From Acetatifactor sp. (GTDB lineage Bacteria; Bacillota; Clostridia; Lachnospirales; Lachnospiraceae), in the NCBI GenBank assembly GCA_045542555.1, contig JAZQLH010000029.1, positions 122 through 64,121 on the forward strand: 64,000 nt of DNA, given 5' to 3'. Shown here in pieces: positions 10,683 through 29,099 of this stretch (positions are counted from its first letter, which is position 1; every line of letters starts with the position of its first letter). A program made the translations under genes and the position numbers. The notes under the pieces were generated by a model, which did no database searches, was not told the origin of the DNA, and saw only the letters and a list, made by a program, of their open reading frames with translations.

Positions 10683-10720
10683 AAAAAAAAGAGAAATACG
10701 GCATTTCTGCTGTATTTCTC
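10683..10720 (-). terminator. Rho-independent terminator, probably the original terminator of the tRNA-Tyr/tRNA-Leu operon displaced by the insertion
   Basis: On the minus strand, stem GAGAAATAC/GTATTTCTC is followed by TTTTTTTT. It lies just outside the left att repeat. Confidence 0.6.
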
Positions 10721-10729
10721 CTACTTCAA

Positions 10730-10754
10730 TTTACTGCTGGTGGCCGGACTTGAA
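10730..10754. repeat. att core repeat, distal copy (duplicated tRNA-Leu 3' end)
   Basis: Identical 25-mer to 15648-15672. The flanking bases differ (10729 A vs 15647 T; 10755 A vs 15673 C). Confidence 0.9.
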
Positions 10755-10813
10755 AACAAAGTCCGATGGCCGGAACATTGATAGAAAGGAGTTTCCGGCT
10801 CTCTCGCTTGGGT

Positions 10814-10832
10814 GTGTAAACGGAGTGTAAAC
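10814..10832. promoter_or_regulatory. Putative integrase arm-type sites: two direct GTGTAAAC octamers spaced 11 bp (left end)
   Basis: GTGTAAAC at 10814-10821 and 10825-10832. The same pair with the same 11-bp spacing sits at the other end (15591-15598 and 15602-15609). Confidence 0.55.
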
Positions 10833-10837
10833 ATCTT

Positions 10838-11113
10838 TTATAACAAGCTATCGTTGAATAGTCTTTCAATATCTCCGGCCTCAAATTTCATATCCTGAAA
10901 CTGTCTAGCCTGCGTCATGGTAACTAAGATATTTGAAACTACCCTGTGCCATGCCTTGTAACGTTCAAGCGATTCTATAATTCTCCCTAAGTCTTGCTTT
11001 GAAATCATAATCATTTCTCCACCTGAAACCGCAACAACTTCACCTTCAACCGCTAATTCTTTGTAAGATAGTCCCAATTCCGTCAATAGTGTTTCTAATT
11101 CTTTTTCTTTCAT
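10838..11113 (-). CDS. Hypothetical protein (islet cargo)
   Basis: 91-aa track ORF with no recognisable motif. AT-rich. Confidence 0.45.
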   Translation of the reverse strand: MKEKELETLLTELGLSYKELAVEGEVVAVSGGEMIMISKQDLGRIIESLERYKAWHRVVSNILVTMTQARQFQDMKFEAGDIERLFNDSLL

Positions 11114-11376
11114 ACTGCAACCTCCACATCTAATTATTTAATTATCTATATTATAATCTTTCCAACTACTATAAGTCCATTTGTAACCTTCACAATTATA
11201 ACTCTTTAATAGAAATTTGGAGGCATTAGTACAACTACTATTATACGTGTATTAAAATTAAAGACTCCTTTCTCTAACCTGCAAAACTTATTTTTTTATT
11301 GACCTTTATGCAATTTGCACAATAAAAGGCATTACCCTATATGGAGTAAAAGGCTTTGTGTTAATGTCCTTCTATT

Positions 11377-11787
11377 CTATCTCCATTGATTCCATTTATT
11401 TACTCGTTTTACTACGTCTTCAGTATTGATAAAACTAACAGGATATACAGCCTCATTTAATGCTTCGTATGTTCCATCTTCTTGTACTTGCTGCAGCACA
11501 ATTCTCAGTTTATTTCGCAACATTGCGCCAAAGGAATTTTGTGCATCTACTTCTGCATATAGATATATTCTTCCATAATTATCTTTATCTTGAATTTCTA
11601 TTGTTTCAAAGTTTACAGTAGAAGGTGCTTTAAGGTGCTTTTTGATACAATCCTTACATGCTTCGATAATTAACTCGTCCATAGTTTTAGGATTTTCATT
11701 TTGAACACTTTTTTCAACTTTTGCACCACATTGAAAACAGAATAATGCATTATCTGATATTTGCGTACCACACTTACTACAAAACAT
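11377..11787 (-). CDS. Zinc-ribbon domain protein (islet cargo)
   Basis: CSKCG..N..FCFQCG is a double CxxC zinc ribbon at the N-terminus. I prefer ATG 11787 (RBS AAAGGAG) to the track start at 11835. A TATAAT-like box lies upstream. Confidence 0.6.
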   Translation of the reverse strand: MFCSKCGTQISDNALFCFQCGAKVEKSVQNENPKTMDELIIEACKDCIKKHLKAPSTVNFETIEIQDKDNYGRIYLYAEVDAQNSFGAMLRNKLRIVLQQVQEDGTYEALNEAVYPVSFINTEDVVKRVNKWNQWR

Positions 11788-11912
11788 ACTCCACACTCCT
11801 TTTATCTTTTTAAATATTATAACATATTTTACCACAATTAGAAAATAATTAGCATAATATTAAAACAACTTTAGAAACAAAAATTCTAAAAAAGATGTAA
11901 ATAAATATATGT

Positions 11913-13445
11913 CTACATTTTCTTAAACAGTTTCCAAGTATATGTCAGATATTTTTCTTCCAATTCATGACCATCAATAAATTCAATATTTACAAGATGA
12001 AATCTATCGTCTTCATCCAAACAATGCACAAGCCTCGTACCTGGATGAATTGCATAGTACAAATTATCGAATTGCGAATGACAATTGGGGCATAGTACGA
12101 CCATATTACCAATTGTGTCATCTCCCTTGTGTATCTTGTTATATGGTCGAATATGATGTGCTTCGGAATAAGCTTCAAATCTTGTTTTCATCAATCTTGT
12201 TCCACACAATTGACAACAATTATTATATGCCAGTTTTAAATTTTCTGCTAAATAAGTACTTCTGACCAAACGTGACAATTCGATATCTTTACTTTTTTGA
12301 TTGTTTTGACTCATTGAATCATATAATACCACATCATCCATACCGATATCATTCTCCTCAGAATATCTATTACAAACAGTTACCCATTCTGCACCTTCTT
12401 CATTTGCATCATCTTCATCTTCAAGGTCTATATTACTTTCGTAGTAATCAACAGCTTTATCATAACTTTCAACTACGTCTGCAATACTAAGAAGATTTGC
12501 AATGCTATTGGGATTATACACTATTCCGTAGTCTGATGTATATTCCTTAGTAGCATTCTTCAATTGCTCATTTGAAAAACCGACCATTGGCAATATGTCT
12601 GCAACACCTCTGCCTTTTGTAGCAACCAAATAATGATAAATTCTACTATAGTTTAACTGTTGGCTACCTACTGTAAGAAATCCATTACTTTTTAACTTAT
12701 AGTTAGCAAATAGATAATTCTGATAACTATTATCAAATGCTTCGTCCTGTGGTGCTCTAAAAAATAGTTCGTCGGAAAGCATATCAATCTTAAAGTAATC
12801 CACATATGCAATAATATACTTTATTATTTCTTCGCCAAGATGAATCCATTTAAGAAGACCGTCATCCGGCTTGTCATCCATTCTAACATTTCTTATTCTT
12901 TGCTCATTTATTAGCACATCATTACATTTTAATTGGCGTATATGTCTCTGTTCAAATATACAAAAATAACAAATTGCACTCATACATTGGGTTATTATTC
13001 TTTCTTCCGTATTCCGAAACTCTCCATCTTTCCCAAGTATAATATTTTGTATATCAGAAAGTGAAATTACGGATTTGTTATTCTTTTCTTTGTTCCCAAT
13101 ATATACAAATTCAAAATCAAATCTCTTATCTAATTTACCCTGCTTAATAAGAAAATCCTTAAGTTTTCTCAATGCAGAACGTATTACTAAACTTCTTCTA
13201 TAATTCTGTTGAAAATCTATTATTCTATCTTCAGAAAAAATACTTTCATAATCCGCATCATCCACCTGATTACGAACTTCATTAAGCAAATATTCTTTGA
13301 CAATATCTACATATAAATTCTTTGTAGATTCTTTCTTTTCTGCTACAAATTCAGTAAATTCATTGACAATCGTGCTTATTTCTTGATATGTAATAGCCCC
13401 CACAAATTTACCCTCCTTTATTTGCTCTACAGTATTATAAATCAT
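11913..13445 (-). CDS. HNH endonuclease-domain fusion protein; the N-terminal ~330 aa possibly form a degenerate tyrosine-recombinase-like DNA-binding module
   Basis: C-terminal HNH motif: CQLCG..(14)..AHHIRP..(12)..GNMVVLCPNCH. N-terminal segments resemble an integrase SAM-like/core-binding region (YRRSLVIRSALRKLKDFLIKQGKL) and a decayed catalytic fold (FEQRHIRQL, LNYSRIYHYLV). Confidence 0.7.
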   Translation of the reverse strand: MIYNTVEQIKEGKFVGAITYQEISTIVNEFTEFVAEKKESTKNLYVDIVKEYLLNEVRNQVDDADYESIFSEDRIIDFQQNYRRSLVIRSALRKLKDFLIKQGKLDKRFDFEFVYIGNKEKNNKSVISLSDIQNIILGKDGEFRNTEERIITQCMSAICYFCIFEQRHIRQLKCNDVLINEQRIRNVRMDDKPDDGLLKWIHLGEEIIKYIIAYVDYFKIDMLSDELFFRAPQDEAFDNSYQNYLFANYKLKSNGFLTVGSQQLNYSRIYHYLVATKGRGVADILPMVGFSNEQLKNATKEYTSDYGIVYNPNSIANLLSIADVVESYDKAVDYYESNIDLEDEDDANEEGAEWVTVCNRYSEENDIGMDDVVLYDSMSQNNQKSKDIELSRLVRSTYLAENLKLAYNNCCQLCGTRLMKTRFEAYSEAHHIRPYNKIHKGDDTIGNMVVLCPNCHSQFDNLYYAIHPGTRLVHCLDEDDRFHLVNIEFIDGHELEEKYLTYTWKLFKKM

Positions 13446-13586
13446 TGTATCACATCACTTACATTTGTAAAATGAATTTATATTTCCATTCACTTTATAA
13501 AAAGTTTATAATTTTCCCTCTAAATAGATATTCATTTCCCACCGATACCAATATTACACAACAAAATAAAAATAGTTCCTTAAACG

Positions 13587-13634
13587 GCAAGACAATTTAA
13601 GAAGCATTCTGCTTCTGATATGTCTTGCTTTTTT
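13587..13634 (+). terminator. Terminator-like hairpin plus T-run in the islet's divergent control region
   Basis: GCAAGACA (13587-13594) pairs with TGTCTTGC (13621-13628). There is an inner GAAGC/GCTTC stem, and TTTTTT follows. Confidence 0.4.
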
Positions 13635-13823
13635 ATATGCAAAAGTAACCTTGTCATCTTATTACATTACTTTTGATTAATTACTACTTCTGTCTCGGTA
13701 ATTTTTCTAAAAGGACAAAAAAGACACGTTTTCATCTGTTTTGGAAGCAAAAAACAAAGTCAACAAATTAATTTATATTAATTACCGTCAAAATCGGTAA
13801 CTTTCAAGGAGGTATTAATTACT

Positions 13824-14246
13824 ATGGATAATTACGAAAGCAGACCTTTATATTCCATGCCATTTCCCAAACCGCTTAAGGAAATGACGGACGAGGAATT
13901 AAACAATCTTCTTACCGGGAAATTCAATTACAATGTACTAATCCCGGCGTTAATTGAAGCTCACTTGCGGAAAGATGAGCAAATCGCCGTACTTACCAAG
14001 CGAATTGCCTATCTTGAACAAAAGGCTCTCCAAAAGCCCGGACGTCCTCGCAGGGAGTTTTGGATTGACGGCCGGGAACTGACAGACGAGTACCTAATGG
14101 AACTGATTGACTACGGCTATTATGATAGCATCAGCAAACTAGAAAAGGAATTACACGCCGGTAAAAATCAGCTCCGCAATCGCTACAACAAAGCAAAAGA
14201 GAAGCAACTTCTAGAAAGGAAGGTAAAAAGTTATGGGAATAGTTAG
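13824..14246 (+). CDS. Small islet protein upstream of and overlapping the integrase gene (possible excisionase or regulator)
   Basis: 140 aa with RBS AAGGAGG. Contains a basic KPGRPRREF segment. It overlaps the integrase start by 14 nt. Confidence 0.5.
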   Translation: MDNYESRPLYSMPFPKPLKEMTDEELNNLLTGKFNYNVLIPALIEAHLRKDEQIAVLTKRIAYLEQKALQKPGRPRREFWIDGRELTDEYLMELIDYGYYDSISKLEKELHAGKNQLRNRYNKAKEKQLLERKVKSYGNS

Positions 14247-15579
14247 ACCAATCGTGCAGGAGTGGTGCGTACCCCAACAGTACACCTCTTCGCCGGAAGT
14301 AATCAAAAACTGCTTGCAGGAAGTCTTAGAAGATAGTATTCTTAAGCCACAAGCGAGCGAGCCGGATAATGAAGATATGAGAAAAGAAAAAAGAGAACGC
14401 ATTATCAAGGCACACATGGAGAAATATACAACTAAATATTATGAGTCAGACAACAGATGGCATTCTTTCCTGCCGGATGAAACCCTTCCACGAAAAATGC
14501 GACCCATTGCCAAGCGAAAGTTTGAAGACTTAGAAAAGGCCATCCTTGCCTATTATGAGGAGCAGGAGCAGATAAAGAACCGCAAGAAAATGACGCTCCG
14601 CAGACTTTACCCGGAATGGTTTGCCTACAAATGGCAAGACACCAACAATTCCAACTACATGAAGCATATCGAAGGCGAATGGAAACGGCATTATGTGGAT
14701 GACCCCATTATTGACCGCCCTGTTGTAGAATTTACTACTCTAGAGCTCAAAAACTGGGCAAGAAGTAAGATTGTAGCCGGACACATGACCAAGAAGCAGT
14801 ATTACAACATGGCAATCATCATTCGCCAGAGCTTGGACTACCTTGTGGAGCTTGGGGAACTGTCTACCAATCCTTATGCCAACTTCAAGATTAATCCCTC
14901 ACTATTTACGCCTGCCAAGCACAAAGAGGCAGAAGAAAGGGTATTTATTGAAGATGAGGAAAAGCAATTGAAGCAGATTGCTCTAAAGGATTTTGCCGAA
15001 CACCCGGAGCATATCGGTGCGGCAGCGGTGCTTATCAATCTATCCTTGGGACTTCGTGTATCAGAACTTGTTGGTCTTAAGTGGAAAGACCTAAAAGACG
15101 GTTATCTGCATATCCGACGCATGGAGCAGAAGCAATGGGAACGACATGCAGACGGCACTTGGAAATCCTATCTGGCAGTTGTGGAGCATACCAAATCCAC
15201 CGCCGGCGTCAGAACCCTTTATGTGGTTTCCTCTTCTCTTGCCTTATTTGAGCAAGTACGGGAAGCCAACAGACAAAGAGGTTATGGTTGCGAGCCGGAA
15301 GATTATATTTTCCAACATGCCGGAAATCGGATTACAGCTAATTCCATTGACAGCTACTATGAGCGGTACTGTAAACAACTTGGAATTGCCAAGAAGGGGA
15401 ATCACGGTGCAAGAAGAACGGCATTAACTAAGATTGCCGACAATCCCAACATTAACCTAAAGGACGCCATGGAATGGGCAGGACACCGGGATGTAAAGAC
15501 TTTTATAAATCACTACTGCTATTCCCGATACTCTGACGAACAGAAAAGAAATGAACTGGAGAAAACCCTAAATCTCTAG
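14233..15579 (+). CDS. int: Tyrosine-type site-specific integrase
   Basis: Catalytic signature present: GLRVSELVGLKW (Arg), HGARRT (His-x-x-Arg), GHRDVKTFINHYCY (His..Tyr). Adjacent to the att core and tRNA-Leu. Confidence 0.9.
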   Translation: MGIVRPIVQEWCVPQQYTSSPEVIKNCLQEVLEDSILKPQASEPDNEDMRKEKRERIIKAHMEKYTTKYYESDNRWHSFLPDETLPRKMRPIAKRKFEDLEKAILAYYEEQEQIKNRKKMTLRRLYPEWFAYKWQDTNNSNYMKHIEGEWKRHYVDDPIIDRPVVEFTTLELKNWARSKIVAGHMTKKQYYNMAIIIRQSLDYLVELGELSTNPYANFKINPSLFTPAKHKEAEERVFIEDEEKQLKQIALKDFAEHPEHIGAAAVLINLSLGLRVSELVGLKWKDLKDGYLHIRRMEQKQWERHADGTWKSYLAVVEHTKSTAGVRTLYVVSSSLALFEQVREANRQRGYGCEPEDYIFQHAGNRITANSIDSYYERYCKQLGIAKKGNHGARRTALTKIADNPNINLKDAMEWAGHRDVKTFINHYCYSRYSDEQKRNELEKTLNL

Positions 15580-15590
15580 TATTTATCAGC

Positions 15591-15622
15591 GTGTAAACAT
15601 GGTGTAAACAAATTTACACACA
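15591..15622. promoter_or_regulatory. Putative integrase arm-type sites (right end): two direct GTGTAAAC octamers spaced 11 bp plus one inverted GTGTGTAAA copy
   Basis: GTGTAAAC at 15591-15598 and 15602-15609. TTTACACAC (reverse complement GTGTGTAAA) at 15613-15621. Confidence 0.55.
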
Positions 15623-15647
15623 AAAAATCCAGCATTTCTGCTGGATT

Positions 15648-15672
15648 TTTACTGCTGGTGGCCGGACTTGAA
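15648..15672. repeat. att core repeat, tRNA-proximal copy
   Basis: Identical 25-mer to 10730-10754. Positions 15653-15672 are the 3' end of tRNA-Leu. Confidence 0.9.
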
Positions 15673-15736
15673 CCGGCACGGGGTTGCCCCCGAGGGATTT
15701 TAAGTCCCTTGCGTCTGCCTATTCCGCCACACCAGC
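15653..15736 (-). tRNA. tRNA-Leu (anticodon UAA), class II with long variable arm, no encoded CCA
   Basis: Hand fold: acceptor GCTGGTG/CACCAGC, anticodon stem AGGGA/TCCCT with loop CTTAAAA, variable arm CGGGGGCAACCCCGT, T-arm GCCGG-TTCAAGT-CCGGC, discriminator A. Confidence 0.9.
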
Positions 15737-26471: not shown

Positions 26472-26688
26472 GGTTCCAATTGGTTTGTTTGTGGTAGGGC
26501 ATTCTATCTTATCGATTGAGGCGCTTTATATCCTATCACGGAACGTTCCCACTCCGTGAAAAACGCAGCGGTACATAGGGTTGCAAAGTACGCAACCCAA
26601 ATACCGGCGTTTTTCAAGGTCCCGTGAGTAGGACATAAAGCGCCTAATCGATGACATATATACTCAGCACAAATAAACCAATTGGAAC
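26472..26688. repeat. Long intergenic hairpin element, copy A (about 217 bp, nested inverted repeats)
   Basis: Outer arms 26472-26493 and 26668-26688. Inner arms start at ATCGATTGAGGCGCTTTA (26511) and end at TAAAGCGCCTAATCGAT (26652). Central hairpin GGGTTGC-aaagtac-GCAACCC. The 142-bp core is about 90 percent identical to 48435-48576. Confidence 0.85.
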
Positions 26689-26733
26689 TTTAATAAAGTA
26701 TATGAAGGCCGCTTGAAAATAGACCTAAACAAA

Positions 26734-26973
26734 TTATATATACCGGAAGAGTTCTTTGGCTTCTTCTTTGCGGACTGTTTCTTGGACGTCAAGGACTTCA
26801 ACCTTTACTTCTTTGTTGCCGAAGGAGATGGTGATGATGTCTCCTTCTTTTACATTTGTGGAAGCCTTAGCCGGCTTGTCGTTAATCATGACTCTGCCGC
26901 TGTCGCAGGCCTCGTTAGCCACGGTACGGCGCTTAATTAATCTTGATACCTTTAAATATTTATCTAATCTCAT
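26734..26973 (-). CDS. S4-domain RNA-binding protein (YabO/Hsp15-like)
   Basis: MRLDKYLKVSRLIKRRTVANEACDSGRVMINDKPAK is an S4 domain. I prefer ATG 26973 (RBS GAGGAGAG) to the track start at 27078. Confidence 0.85.
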   Translation of the reverse strand: MRLDKYLKVSRLIKRRTVANEACDSGRVMINDKPAKASTNVKEGDIITISFGNKEVKVEVLDVQETVRKEEAKELFRYI

Positions 26974-27029
26974 GTTTTCTCTCCTCATATGAATTGGAAT
27001 TTGAGCATTCATATCGCATAGCTTAAAAG

Positions 27030-27701
27030 CTATTTTATGGCGACAATTACTGAAAACTTCTGATAAGAATACACACATTTAATCGTCTTAAATTTACTCT
27101 TACGAAGCATTTCGATTTCTTCATCAACAGAACATTCTCTATCTAATTTTTTTCGCTCTTTCCATAATTCTATATCATGTTCGGTCAATCCGCTCTTTGC
27201 CAATTGATTTTCCCAATACGAATTAAACCATTCATTCATTTCATCCTGTCCGGCACAAAACTGGTCATAGTTTACAAATAAACCACCACTCGGCAATTTA
27301 TCATAAATTTGTGTAAATAGTTTCTGCTTATCCTCATTCTCCAAGTGATGAATTGACAAAGCAGAAGCAATTACATCAAAATCTCCGTTCGGAAGTCCTT
27401 TGGAATAATCCAACACTTGATAAGATATACTGTCTATACCAGCAAATCTCTTACGAGCAACATTCAACATTTCATCTGCTATATCTGCTAGTACATATTC
27501 TGCCGATGAACACTGTTGATACCAAAAATAAGACAATAATCCTGTTCCGGCACCCAAATCTAAAACTCGTTTTGGTTTTTCAATATTTGAAACAATAAAC
27601 TTTGTTGTATTTTCGTAATAATCATCAAAACAAGGTATAAATTTCTTTCGATTAGCATCATATTCTTGTGCCACGAAATTGAATTGTTCTTTTATATTCA
27701 T
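27030..27701 (-). CDS. Class I SAM-dependent methyltransferase
   Basis: SAM-binding motif VLDLGAGTGLLS. I prefer ATG 27701 (RBS AAGGAG). Confidence 0.8.
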   Translation of the reverse strand: MNIKEQFNFVAQEYDANRKKFIPCFDDYYENTTKFIVSNIEKPKRVLDLGAGTGLLSYFWYQQCSSAEYVLADIADEMLNVARKRFAGIDSISYQVLDYSKGLPNGDFDVIASALSIHHLENEDKQKLFTQIYDKLPSGGLFVNYDQFCAGQDEMNEWFNSYWENQLAKSGLTEHDIELWKERKKLDRECSVDEEIEMLRKSKFKTIKCVYSYQKFSVIVAIK

Positions 27702-27925
27702 TTTTAACCGCTCCTTACCACAAAGAAAACATAATAATCTAACATACAAATTGAAATTCGTCTATATTATATCTTTTCCACATTAGAAACACAATTCCCA
27801 AAAAGGGGTTAGCTACAAACCTTTGCCATTTCACCTTGAAAATAAGACTATATCTTCTTTTTTCCCATTTTAGTCCTACTTTTTAGCTCCTGCCGCAATT
27901 AAAGGCTTCCTGAATCTTGCAAATC

Positions 27926-27956
27926 AAAAAGGAGAACCTTATTACAGGTTCTCCTT
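27926..27956 (-). terminator. Rho-independent terminator after the HU gene
   Basis: On the minus strand, AAGGAGAACC-tgtaataa-GGTTCTCCTT followed by TTTTGATTT. Confidence 0.7.
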
Positions 27957-27978
27957 GTCATGTGTAAGCTTAAAGCAA

Positions 27979-28254
27979 TTATGCGTTCAGCATATCCTTC
28001 AGAGCCTTACCGCCCTTGAACTTGGGAGACTTAGAAGCTGCAATCTTCATAGCCTTACCGGTCTGGGGATTTCTGCCCTCTCTAGCTGCTCTCTCGGATA
28101 CCTCGAAAGTACCGAAACCAACAAGCTGAACCTTGCCACCCTTCTTCAACTCATCTGCTACTACATCAGTGAAAGCCTTCAGAGCCTTCTCTGCGTCCTT
28201 CTTGGAAAGACCAGCCTGGTCAGCCATAGCTGCAATCAATTCTGTCTTGTTCAT
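27979..28254 (-). CDS. hup: DNA-binding protein HU
   Basis: MNKTELIAAMADQAGLSKKDAEKALKAF...GFGTFEVSERAAREGRNPQTGKAMKI. Start ATG 28254. Confidence 0.95.
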   Translation of the reverse strand: MNKTELIAAMADQAGLSKKDAEKALKAFTDVVADELKKGGKVQLVGFGTFEVSERAAREGRNPQTGKAMKIAASKSPKFKGGKALKDMLNA

Positions 28255-28391
28255 TTTGAACTCCTCCTGTATAGGTTTTTTCTTTTTTGCGTTACATATG
28301 TTGTATTGCATAGTAGATGTCTCTTTTGAAACGTCTATACATATATATATCCGTTTTTTAGCGGTTTGTCAAGGATTTCCGCTATTTTTTC

Positions 28392-29099
28392 CTAATTTGT
28401 GGCCTCGTAATACTCTATTATAGCTTCTATTCTGTCTGTAAGAATTTGTTCCGGGTATAATTTGCATGTTCGAGACACCCCGGCAAGCGCTAGCAAAGCA
28501 TCTCCTACCTGCTTGGAAATGTCCTGACTATAGTCGCAGGGTTCACAACCCTTCAAGGCTTGGCAGGCTGTCTCCAAAGCCGCCACACAGGTTTTATAAT
28601 CCTGCCCGGGTTCATAATGCTTGTCCGCTTTTTTTAACACCTTCGTTGCTCTTGCCAGCGACGGAAGCTCCGCAGGAATCTCCCGAAGAGGCGTTACAGG
28701 CTGTGTTTTTCCGGACTTTTCTTTTTTCTTAATCTCTTCCCAGTTCTCAAGCACCTGTCCGGATCCGCTTACCTTAAGCTCTCCAAATACATGGGGATGT
28801 CGGCGGACCATTTTGGCTGCTACCTCGTCAATCACGTCTTCTATGGTAAAAAGGCCTTCTTCCTTAGCAATCTGGGCATGCATTACCACCTGAAGCAGCA
28901 CATCTCCCAGTTCCTCCCGCAAATTGGTATAATCTCCTGTTTCGTCATAGAGGCGGATGCCGGCCATAACCTCTGCCGCCTCTTCCATCATACAGGGACG
29001 CAGACTCATATGGGTCTGCTCCTTGTCCCAAGGGCACCCGTTTTCACTGCGAAGTGTGGCTATTATTTCCAAAAAATCTTCATATGAGTATTTTTTCAT
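28392..29099 (-). CDS. mazG: MazG-family nucleoside triphosphate pyrophosphohydrolase
   Basis: CPWDKEQTHMSLRPCMMEEAAEV and EELGDVLLQV are MazG motifs. It occupies the yabN position in the conserved cluster. Confidence 0.85.
   Translation of the reverse strand: MKKYSYEDFLEIIATLRSENGCPWDKEQTHMSLRPCMMEEAAEVMAGIRLYDETGDYTNLREELGDVLLQVVMHAQIAKEEGLFTIEDVIDEVAAKMVRRHPHVFGELKVSGSGQVLENWEEIKKKEKSGKTQPVTPLREIPAELPSLARATKVLKKADKHYEPGQDYKTCVAALETACQALKGCEPCDYSQDISKQVGDALLALAGVSRTCKLYPEQILTDRIEAIIEYYEATN

Follow-up and report, generated by a model that had tools for sequence, protein, structure and literature searches.

What is a recombinase-like fold doing in front of a nuclease? The question is raised by one minus-strand gene in a 64,000-nucleotide stretch of Acetatifactor sp. 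DNA (Lachnospiraceae; GenBank assembly GCA_045542555.1, contig JAZQLH010000029.1, positions 122 to 64,121; the window hereafter), where it is carried by a 4.9-kb islet of five open reading frames (ORFs) at tRNA-Leu(taa) (10730-15672). A first-pass annotation, made by eye, had described the 510-residue ORF at 11913..13445 as an HNH nuclease preceded by a decayed tyrosine-recombinase fold, and the ORF is present as first described. Based on the collective evidence of the present analysis, the gene is understood as joining a catalytically dead tyrosine recombinase (a pseudo-recombinase) to an intact HNH nuclease cassette, and the fusion most likely represents a novel means of directing a defence nuclease to its DNA target. 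Residue numbers throughout are those of the 510-residue form of the protein.

The N-terminal ~320 residues form a complete two-domain tyrosine-recombinase fold, with core-binding (CB) and catalytic (CAT) domains, of Xer-like descent. Nothing credible is found in Pfam for residues 1-400 of the window protein, and weak matches over residues 14-86 (DosC_2nd, RpoY, Arg_decarbox_C), lying far under their cut-offs, were disregarded. Compared with the Protein Data Bank (PDB), a profile of the full-length family matches the XerA tyrosine recombinase of Thermoplasma (5hxy) at 6.8e-7, and a profile of the N-terminal 335 residues alone does so at 5.6e-8 in an alignment that starts in the core-binding domain and spans the catalytic one as well; the SAM-like domain suspected at residues ~20-105 thus holds, and is mapped here to residues 15-118. 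The Pfam family Phage_integrase (PF00589) is matched by 9 of 41 family members, at least two of which (P0044, 32.4 bits; P0054, 27.4 bits) exceed its gathering score of 27.1, as do the later-retrieved homologues P0088 and P0104. Searched against 1.84 billion representative proteins, the N-terminal profile retrieves the fusions, then stand-alone relatives of ~305 residues, and then ordinary Xer-like recombinases at 1e-12 to 1e-6 whose Pfam signatures are intact (e.g., P0128, with PF00589 at 7e-39 together with Phage_int_SAM_1).

The predicted structures point the same way. AlphaFold gives a predicted local distance difference test score (pLDDT) of 83 for the full-length protein and of 88.5 for the N-terminal part (predicted template modelling score, pTM, 0.61), with values >90 over most of residues 20-330. 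In Foldseek searches with both models, every significant match of the N-terminal part is to a tyrosine recombinase or to the repressor SroF, at probability 1.0 (XerA, IntI, Tn1549 Int, Cre, lambda Int, XerH, XerD and SroF), the sole other significant match being TagI, to the HNH part; a viral structure library (BFVD) returns integrases only. Whole-molecule TM-scores are modest (0.35-0.52) and the root-mean-square deviation (rmsd) is high because the CB and CAT domains hinge, and weight is therefore placed on probabilities, E-values and the unanimity of the matches. The by-eye reading of the N-terminus is borne out by these results, profile and structure searches having assigned no unrelated fold, and its three sequence landmarks fall where genuine recombinases have theirs in the alignment: FEQRHIRQL at box I (Arg-I), LNYSRIYHYLV at the HxxR box and MVGFSNE at the LLGH box. 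Positions Y45, Q166, D176, Y214 and A298 are invariant across the 41-member alignment. The region, conserved and confidently folded, is not a decaying remnant.

The active site of this fold is a different matter. Of the catalytic set R-K-H-R-H/W-Y of tyrosine recombinases, only the tyrosine remains. Alignment with intact recombinases places E165, inside a family-wide FEQ motif, at the Arg-I position; M189, within a conserved I-R-N-x-R motif (R185, N186, R188), at that of the β-hairpin lysine; Q262 at His-II; N265 at Arg-II, with an arginine one position later in many relatives and Y266 in the clade of the window protein; and F290 at His/Trp-III. The nucleophile is kept as Y302 and conserved in at least 90% of the members, an assignment that rests on one alignment, a MAFFT alignment of sequences ending at 345 residues having misplaced the tyrosine column. 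The complete set of catalytic residues is found in no fusion of the family. Where the first-pass annotation took the usual histidine and tyrosine positions to be lost, both histidines are indeed gone, the tyrosine is retained, and both arginines are missing in addition. Since both active-site arginines and both histidines have been replaced, the pseudo-recombinase, as judged from these residues, cannot recombine DNA. Its pattern of replacement is that of the SPbeta repressor MrpR, a protein that retains Tyr304, has other residues at the arginine and histidine positions and, its authors conclude, lost recombinase function and became a DNA-binding protein (PMC10516654).

The nuclease half, by contrast with the dead recombinase, appears intact. 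The motifs CQLCG, AHHIRP and GNMVVLCPNCH, from which an HNH nuclease had been called, are accompanied over residues 411-466 by matches above the curated cut-offs to Pfam HNH (PF01844; 1.3e-8, 35.3 bits) and HNH_2 (PF13391; 2.7e-8, 34.0 bits), and no substitution is seen at C411, C414, H430, H431, N447, C452, C455, H456 or D460 among 41 homologues (30-86% identity). The cassette comprises a YSEENDI lead-in, an RLVRS segment, the Cys4 HNH and a C-terminal extension (H493, Y499, W504), with a YTWKLF motif behind the HNH. Its closest solved relative is TagI (6ghs; profile 1e-17; Foldseek rmsd 3.9 Å over 118 columns, 29% structural-alignment identity), followed among the profile matches by EcoKMcrA (4e-5), and the catalytic His, Asn245, His254 and metal-binding Asp258 of TagI align with H431, N447, H456 and D460. 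Sub-threshold matches, all to the HNH part only, are to a phosphorothioated-DNA (PT-DNA) restriction endonuclease (5e-6) and IscB in NCBIfam and to mREase_IV (3e-5) and ZorE in PADLOC. On motifs and profiles, the C-terminal ~155 residues are a nuclease cassette of the Cys4 HNH type that is intact and belongs to the TagI/McrA clade. TagI and related enzymes pair their nuclease domains to build one shared DNA site; their recognition domains are free to move, and the distance at which they cleave varies.

Between the two halves runs a flexible, acidic linker, whose length differs within the family (50-84 residues). The acidic run that had been noticed between them, DLEDEDDANEEGAE, is present at residues 340-353 (12387-12428), and the segment 343-360 is of low confidence in the AlphaFold model (pLDDT <50).

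The arrangement is rare and at the same time recurrent. A search of 5.8 billion protein clusters gave 76 matches, among them ~59 full-length relatives (480-530 residues, 30-90% identity), and a survey of one genome per species found the full-length fusion in ~10 of 185,579 species, all of them Bacillota. By tblastn the fusion family was not found in 50,697 phage records, and in 72,556 plasmid records only the HNH part was found, with no fusion. The names given to family members in databases are 'HNH endonuclease' and, once, 'integrase'. PADLOC-DB v2 has no full-length match and gives for the window protein only the weak partial matches to the HNH part mentioned above, the N-module and its stand-alone relatives being without any. 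Sequence change in the N-module is about twice as rapid as in the nuclease cassette (mean pairwise identities of 36% and 57%), and the same cassette occurs behind an unrelated N-terminus of ~150 residues in P0060-64 (53% identity, hhalign 1e-49) and behind a genuine MrpR_N_CB domain (PF22822, 2.3e-9) in P0065; more distant HNH_2 relatives carry SRA domains. Because the cassette is shared by different N-termini and HNH_2 closes every longer protein matched by the N-module profile, the most remote included, the combination of a pseudo-recombinase with this HNH is, on present comparisons, a recurrent and modular arrangement.

Clues to where the recognition half came from are provided by its nearest relatives, the stand-alone pseudo-recombinases of ~305 residues (P0089-P0116; 1e-56 to 1e-35), for which neither Pfam nor PADLOC gives a match. 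They lack a nuclease and share with the fusions FEQ at Arg-I and Q...L-x-R-S at the HxxR box, so they are also inactive by these signatures, and inactivation therefore probably preceded the fusion to the nuclease. Four of their genes lie at L010:6001-6936, L012:6001-6927, L014:6001-6918 and L015:6001-6915. Their settings include a position after prophage lysis genes and before PD-T7-5 (PADLOC 3.9e-114); one next to Thoeris ThsB/ThsA and a PycTM-like gene; one beside a helicase-DUF2726 gene; and, in L014, one within a prophage, divergent from an HTH_17/Bro-N pair and beside a Dam methylase, like a repressor in a genetic switch. The pool from which the N-module was drawn thus appears to be one of prophage or defence-island DNA binders.

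The fusion gene itself was followed through ~10 neighbourhoods. It is always solitary and lies on various mobile elements and defence-type islands, in some cases near GmrSD; a place in defence islands, which had been put forward as a check, is seen among these neighbourhoods. Homologue P0014 adjoins a Tn916-type xis/int pair; P0035 is flanked by serine recombinases, with GmrSD_N nearby; P0051, from Peribacillus, lies in an island with IS110, a resolvase, kinases and GmrSD; P0029 neighbours a recombinase trio and has an AAA_5 gene after it; and P0005, 82% identical, is placed between a HEPN_Cthe2314 gene and a NOV_C gene in an element resembling an integrative and conjugative element. Two cases are of another kind: P0020 is the second gene of a two-gene insert, Fic gene then fusion gene, between housekeeping genes, and P0065 (L011:5982-7568), whose N-terminus has an MrpR_N_CB-type integrase fold, is basic and retains Arg-I, stands alone between the housekeeping genes polA/coaE/SLT/SBP and an acyltransferase. 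A recurring partner (immunity protein, methyltransferase or antitoxin) was found in none of these neighbourhoods. Directly upstream of one fusion homologue, at L099:2483-7042, are three consecutive tyrosine recombinases (312, 610 and 598 residues) with DUF6262 and MarR genes; the first of the three has a weak match to MrpR_C_cat.

What the enzyme might do can be framed from these elements. We favour, at a probability of roughly 0.55, a stand-alone defence or conflict nuclease that is aimed by a pseudo-recombinase clamp. The gene would encode a single-polypeptide DNA endonuclease of the restriction or defence type, travelling as swappable cargo of mobile elements; its dead recombinase would close on DNA as a C-shaped clamp and pick the substrate for cutting by sequence and/or shape, in the manner of MrpR/SroF and TnsF, and the HNH cassettes would dimerise and cut near the bound site. 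With no methyltransferase as partner, self DNA would have to be spared in another way: either the host would lack the feature that is recognised (some sequence, structure or modification carried by invading phage or plasmid DNA), or the acidic linker and the N-module would keep the nuclease inactive as long as the right DNA has not been bound. Candidates for what the module recognises are a sequence, the shape of the DNA, a branched structure and a modification. Basic residues are conserved at the canonical DNA-contact elements, R83, R84 and R89 in the CB helix and R185 and R188 in the β-hairpin. Two precedents can be named: SroF is a monomeric C-clamp around 26 bp, of which it reads 24, with an inner surface that is positive and an outer one that is neutral to negative (bioRxiv 10.1101/2025.11.27.690993), and TnsF is an inactivated tyrosine recombinase acting as Tn7 target selector (PMC10293859).

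Several observations weigh against such a clamp-guided nuclease. The fused N-module is net acidic (median isoelectric point, pI, 5.4; net charge -6), whereas the stand-alone relatives have a pI of 8.9 and active Xer-like recombinases one of 9.6. Acidity is unexpected for a DNA clamp and could indicate a non-DNA ligand or weak DNA binding; other possible explanations are that selection has kept a dangerous enzyme from binding DNA non-specifically, or that the linker is autoinhibitory and mimics DNA. The family is known from sequences and predicted structures, PADLOC holds no model for the N-module, and the link to defence rests on the ~10 neighbourhoods, not on statistics. Absence from the phage and plasmid records leaves the ecology of the family known only from chromosomal or integrated elements. 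While the architecture itself is secure, the acidity of fused module and linker is the reason why confidence in the DNA-clamp mechanism is moderate.

The alternative that survives best is a special case of the clamp-guided nuclease, one we hold to be unlikely: a strict type IV restriction enzyme, in which the pseudo-recombinase would read a modified base or backbone, as the SRA, EVE, SBD and winged-helix readers do in TagI, VcaM4I, ScoMcrA and HhiV4I, and the HNH would cut modified phage DNA only. The membership of the cassette in the TagI/EcoKMcrA clade is consistent with it, as are the PADLOC mREase_IV match (3e-5), the NCBIfam match to the PT-DNA restriction endonuclease (5e-6, far under cut-off) and the SRA domains on more distant HNH_2 relatives. 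Gene context agrees, in that a methyltransferase is adjacent in none of the examined cases, the type IV genes GmrSD occur in two of the same islands and an Mrr-type nuclease fills the cargo slot of a sister islet (see below). The reader domain is where the case falters: searches of Pfam, NCBIfam, PADLOC and the PDB find no known modification reader (SRA, EVE/PUA, SBD, winged helix or McrA-NTD) in residues 1-400, no account of DNA modifications being read by a tyrosine-recombinase fold came to our notice, and MrpR/SroF and TnsF read sequence and shape.

Somewhat more doubtful still is a more specific form of the clamp-guided nuclease, namely that the N-module may still read the operator, att or signature DNA of a lineage of temperate phages or integrative elements, which would make the fusion a lineage-specific, protein-'guided' nuclease against rivals. 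The idea is prompted by the stand-alone relatives, which lie in prophages and in one instance diverge from an HTH_17/Bro-N pair like a repressor. If it is true, clamp recognition of a long site (~20-26 bp, SroF-like), coupled to a tethered HNH, would let mobile elements destroy rivals that share the ancestral site, and the fast-evolving N-module would be a natural re-targetable long-site reader for nucleases.

Two further readings are improbable, to much the same degree. The first sees a selfish homing-type endonuclease, with the pseudo-recombinase providing long-site specificity, the HNH cutting empty alleles and repair copying the gene or its carrier. The sporadic, rare occurrence (~60 clusters among 5.8 billion proteins, ~10 of 185,579 species genomes), the constant association with mobile DNA, the two-gene insert of Fic and fusion genes between housekeeping genes (P0020) and the isolated P0065 between polA/coaE and other housekeeping genes could all be so explained. 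The gene, however, is in no intron, intein or phage genome (50,697 phage records) and is cargo of several unrelated classes of element that have integrases of their own, and a fixed homing site is unlikely because 82%-identical relatives occupy entirely different neighbourhoods. The second has the N-module no longer binding DNA and serving instead as a protein-binding, sensor or autoinhibitory domain, for example as a decoy for a phage recombinase, antirepressor or other trigger, from which the HNH would be released as a non-specific DNase and abortive-infection toxin. Here the acidity finds a ready place: the fused module is markedly more acidic than its stand-alone and active relatives, the linker, at a net charge of -16, could mimic DNA, and SroF is bound by a DNA-mimicking antirepressor, Sar; the stand-alone pseudo-recombinases, moreover, adjoin Thoeris, the PycTM-like gene and PD-T7-5. 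Against this stand the conserved basic residues at the canonical DNA-contact elements, the DNA binding of every characterised exapted recombinase fold, and the want of a conserved antitoxin or partner gene.

The islet that carries the gene bears on a last possibility. Its boundaries are 25-nucleotide direct repeats of the tRNA-Leu 3' end (coordinates of all features are collected in the table below), and just outside this core an imperfect repeat is seen (10694-10725 against 15625-15656; 81% identical, offset by a 13-nucleotide indel). Searches of Pfam, NCBIfam, PADLOC and PHROGs gave nothing for the 140-residue protein encoded ahead of the integrase, a protein that may serve in excision or regulation. 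The zinc-ribbon protein, whose gene comes next after the fusion gene, matches PHROGs of unknown function (phrog_13160, 1.8e-11; phrog_2320, 1.2e-9), and neither its gene nor the 91-residue ORF is a conserved neighbour of the fusion elsewhere in the ~10 neighbourhoods. G+C content is ~30% in the cargo part and 44-46% in the integrase module and host flanks. A second dip, to 0.33-0.38 against ~0.45 around it, lies at 26500-28500 of the window and may be another acquired segment.

Two sister Acetatifactor species have an integrase 98-99% identical to that of the window, together with the 140-residue gene, at the same tRNA, the flanking host gene being only ~90% identical. An 'empty site' was sought in the closest species (L101, L102, L167) and none was found: in all three this tRNA-Leu is occupied by an element. 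The islet integrase recurs in L101 and L102, where the cargo is different or truncated and an ISLre2-like ORF is read by eye; where the cargo is assembled (L101/L182), it differs from that of the window. The cargo region of this sister islet holds a 493-residue ORF (L101:12581-14062, equal to L182:7690-9171) that, read by eye from its motif DKYHLMKY, looks like an ISLre2-type transposase. In L167, a third Acetatifactor genome, the tRNA-Leu is occupied by a different integrase-bearing element (L167:10268-10859), and the tRNA is therefore an insertion hot spot. About 20 related loci in Lachnospiraceae (L181-L200; e.g., L186:6408-11500, L188, L189, L195, L200) contain islets that, where att repeats (21-32 nucleotides) are recognisable, measure 3-9 kb; their cargo includes a 552-residue Mrr_cat nuclease, a protein with five copies of DUF4379, a UDPGT/EryCIII-like glycosyltransferase, a 466-residue zinc-ribbon protein and several proteins without family match. 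With its conserved integrase, ~140-residue gene and swappable slot, the tRNA-Leu islet family looks like a small 'cargo carrier' element, and since islets with the same integrase hold other genes in the slot, the fusion gene is, by this comparison, optional cargo and not islet machinery. A role in maintaining or moving the islet (as a nickase, say, or a site-binding accessory for excision, replication or transfer) is accordingly very improbable, for all that the gene is encoded divergently from the integrase module of a 4.9-kb element and its product has a DNA-binding fold like that of recombinases: where the integrase is 67-99% identical and the 140-residue gene is present, islets hold entirely different genes in the slot with att repeats intact, homologues occur with no integrase nearby, the cargo segment is of 30% G+C against the 44-46% of the integrase module, and hhalign detects no similarity between N-module and islet integrase. 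The related notion of a nuclease that borrows the specificity of the islet integrase or serves islet recombination was dropped on the same comparison (hhalign probability 0.1) and on the variability of sister cargo.

The reading frame calls for one correction. Although the 510-residue ORF exists as annotated, the true product is probably the 496-residue protein that starts from the GTG at 13403, because an AAGGAGG precedes this codon, the upstream ATG at 13445 overlaps a -10-like hexamer (TACAAT, 13449-13444), and the start is equivalent to residue 15 in all homologues as well as in the 496-residue database version of the window protein.

Table. Features of the fusion gene and its islet, in window coordinates (residues in 510-residue numbering)
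Feature	Position	Strand	Details
Pseudo-recombinase-HNH fusion, longest ORF	11913..13445	-	510 residues
Probable coding sequence of the fusion gene	11913..13403	-	496 residues, GTG start; from ribosome-binding site and homologue N-termini
Core-binding (SAM-like) helical domain of pseudo-recombinase	13092..13403	-	residues 15-118; holds conserved basic helix RRSLVIRSALRKL (R83, R84, R89)
CAT-like domain of pseudo-recombinase	12486..13073	-	residues 125-320
Inter-module linker	12261..12485	-	residues 321-395; long helix 321-344, then disordered, strongly acidic segment; net charge -16
Conserved C-terminal nuclease cassette	11913..12377	-	residues 357-510 and stop codon
HNH (beta-beta-alpha-Me) core	12048..12215	-	residues 411-466; C411-x2-C414, H430-H431, N447, C452-x2-C455-H456, D460
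Ribosome-binding site and probable GTG start codon	13401..13418	-	AAGGAGG 13418-13412; GTG 13403-13401; spacing 8 nt
Promoter-like site	13444..13471	-	-35 TTTACA 13471-13466; extended -10 TG-n-TACAAT ending 13444; consensus match only
attL, left islet boundary	10730..10754	.	exact 25-nt direct repeat of tRNA-Leu 3' end, TTTACTGCTGGTGGCCGGACTTGAA
91-residue ORF	10838-11113		follows zinc-ribbon gene
Zinc-ribbon protein gene	11377..11835	-	152 residues; directly downstream of fusion gene, same strand; islet cargo
140-residue protein gene	13824..14246	+	overlaps integrase start by 14 nt; conserved with integrase across islet family
Islet tyrosine integrase, active type	14233..15579	+	448 residues; PF00589 3e-14; PHROG integrase 1.8e-31
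attR, second copy of 25-nt repeat	15648..15672	.	overlaps 3' end of tRNA-Leu(taa) 15653-15736 (-)

Lastly, the fusion may be set against known systems. Modular nucleases, composed of a recognition domain and an HNH or PD-(D/E)XK cutter, have given both restriction enzymes and scaffolds for genome engineering. The type IV enzymes TagI, EcoKMcrA and ScoMcrA share with the window protein a homologous C-terminal HNH cassette with equivalent His, Asn, His and Asp, the order of N-terminal recognition domain, flexible linker and C-terminal nuclease, and a single gene without methyltransferase; they differ in the recognition module, which in the window protein is a two-domain pseudo-tyrosine-recombinase of ~320 residues, not SRA, EVE, SBD, winged helix or McrA-NTD. 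From HNH homing endonucleases the gene is set apart as cargo of an integrative element, being neither in an intron or intein nor free-standing in a phage (50,697 phage records). ICP1 Odn, a chimeric anti-element nuclease, is similar in concept and has no relation in sequence or fold to the window protein. The same is true of the NixI nickase of the phage-inducible chromosomal island-like element PLE, a mobile-element nuclease aimed at the DNA of a rival element (PMC9410903).

On the recombinase side, the Xer recombinases (XerA, XerC/D, XerH) are the closest active relatives by profile and fold, of the same length and CB+CAT layout. The window protein differs from them in lacking both arginines and both histidines, in the charge reversal at Arg-I (E165), in a 3-residue insertion before the tyrosine, in being acidic instead of basic and in its fusion to a nuclease; the stand-alone pseudo-recombinases, in turn, are without nuclease and basic (pI ~8.9). 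MrpR (YopR) and SroF, master repressors of SPbeta-like phages, have the same two-domain fold with Arg/His replaced and Tyr kept, used there purely for DNA binding, and the SroF-DNA complex (9rd5) is among the best structural matches of the window protein (TM 0.45-0.47). Unlike these repressors, the window protein carries a nuclease, is acidic (the P0065 N-terminus is basic) and is not encoded within a lysis-lysogeny switch; filing it under MrpR was rejected, since it has no match to PF22822 or PF22823 (no hit at E<=1) and hhalign against the P0065 N-terminus gives a probability of 0.1. TnsF, of Tn6022-like Tn7 transposons, is alike in that an inactivated tyrosine-recombinase domain picks the DNA site for a separate catalytic machinery (PMC10293859). 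The difference is that TnsF, which bears zinc-finger extensions, serves the TnsABC transposase in trans, whereas the effector of the window protein is a covalently fused HNH.

The first-pass annotation had named the architecture as one not known from described restriction or defence systems. Nor did we find the joining of a tyrosine-recombinase-like domain to an HNH nuclease described in PADLOC, in the phage or plasmid records or in the literature searched, which covered the His-Me finger classification, TagI and domain screens for restriction enzymes, Domainator, DefensePredictor, MrpR, SroF and TnsF. Nucleases that combine modular recognition with an HNH being already known, the new part is the dead tyrosine recombinase in the recognition slot, and the fusion is not categorically new. 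Should the clamp contact a long site in the way of SroF, a monomer that reads 24 of 26 bp, the family would consist of naturally occurring rare cutters whose specificity domain changes quickly. The 3-9 kb tRNA-Leu islets of gut Lachnospiraceae, with their fixed integrase module and a swappable slot that includes nucleases, offer a convenient hunting ground for more defence genes. Exapted recombinase folds, which serve as repressors in MrpR/SroF and as target selector in TnsF, would gain in the fusion a third, independent use, which suggests, with support from the MrpR-type fusion of P0065, that the recombinase fold is a recurrent source of DNA-targeting modules in the conflicts of mobile elements.

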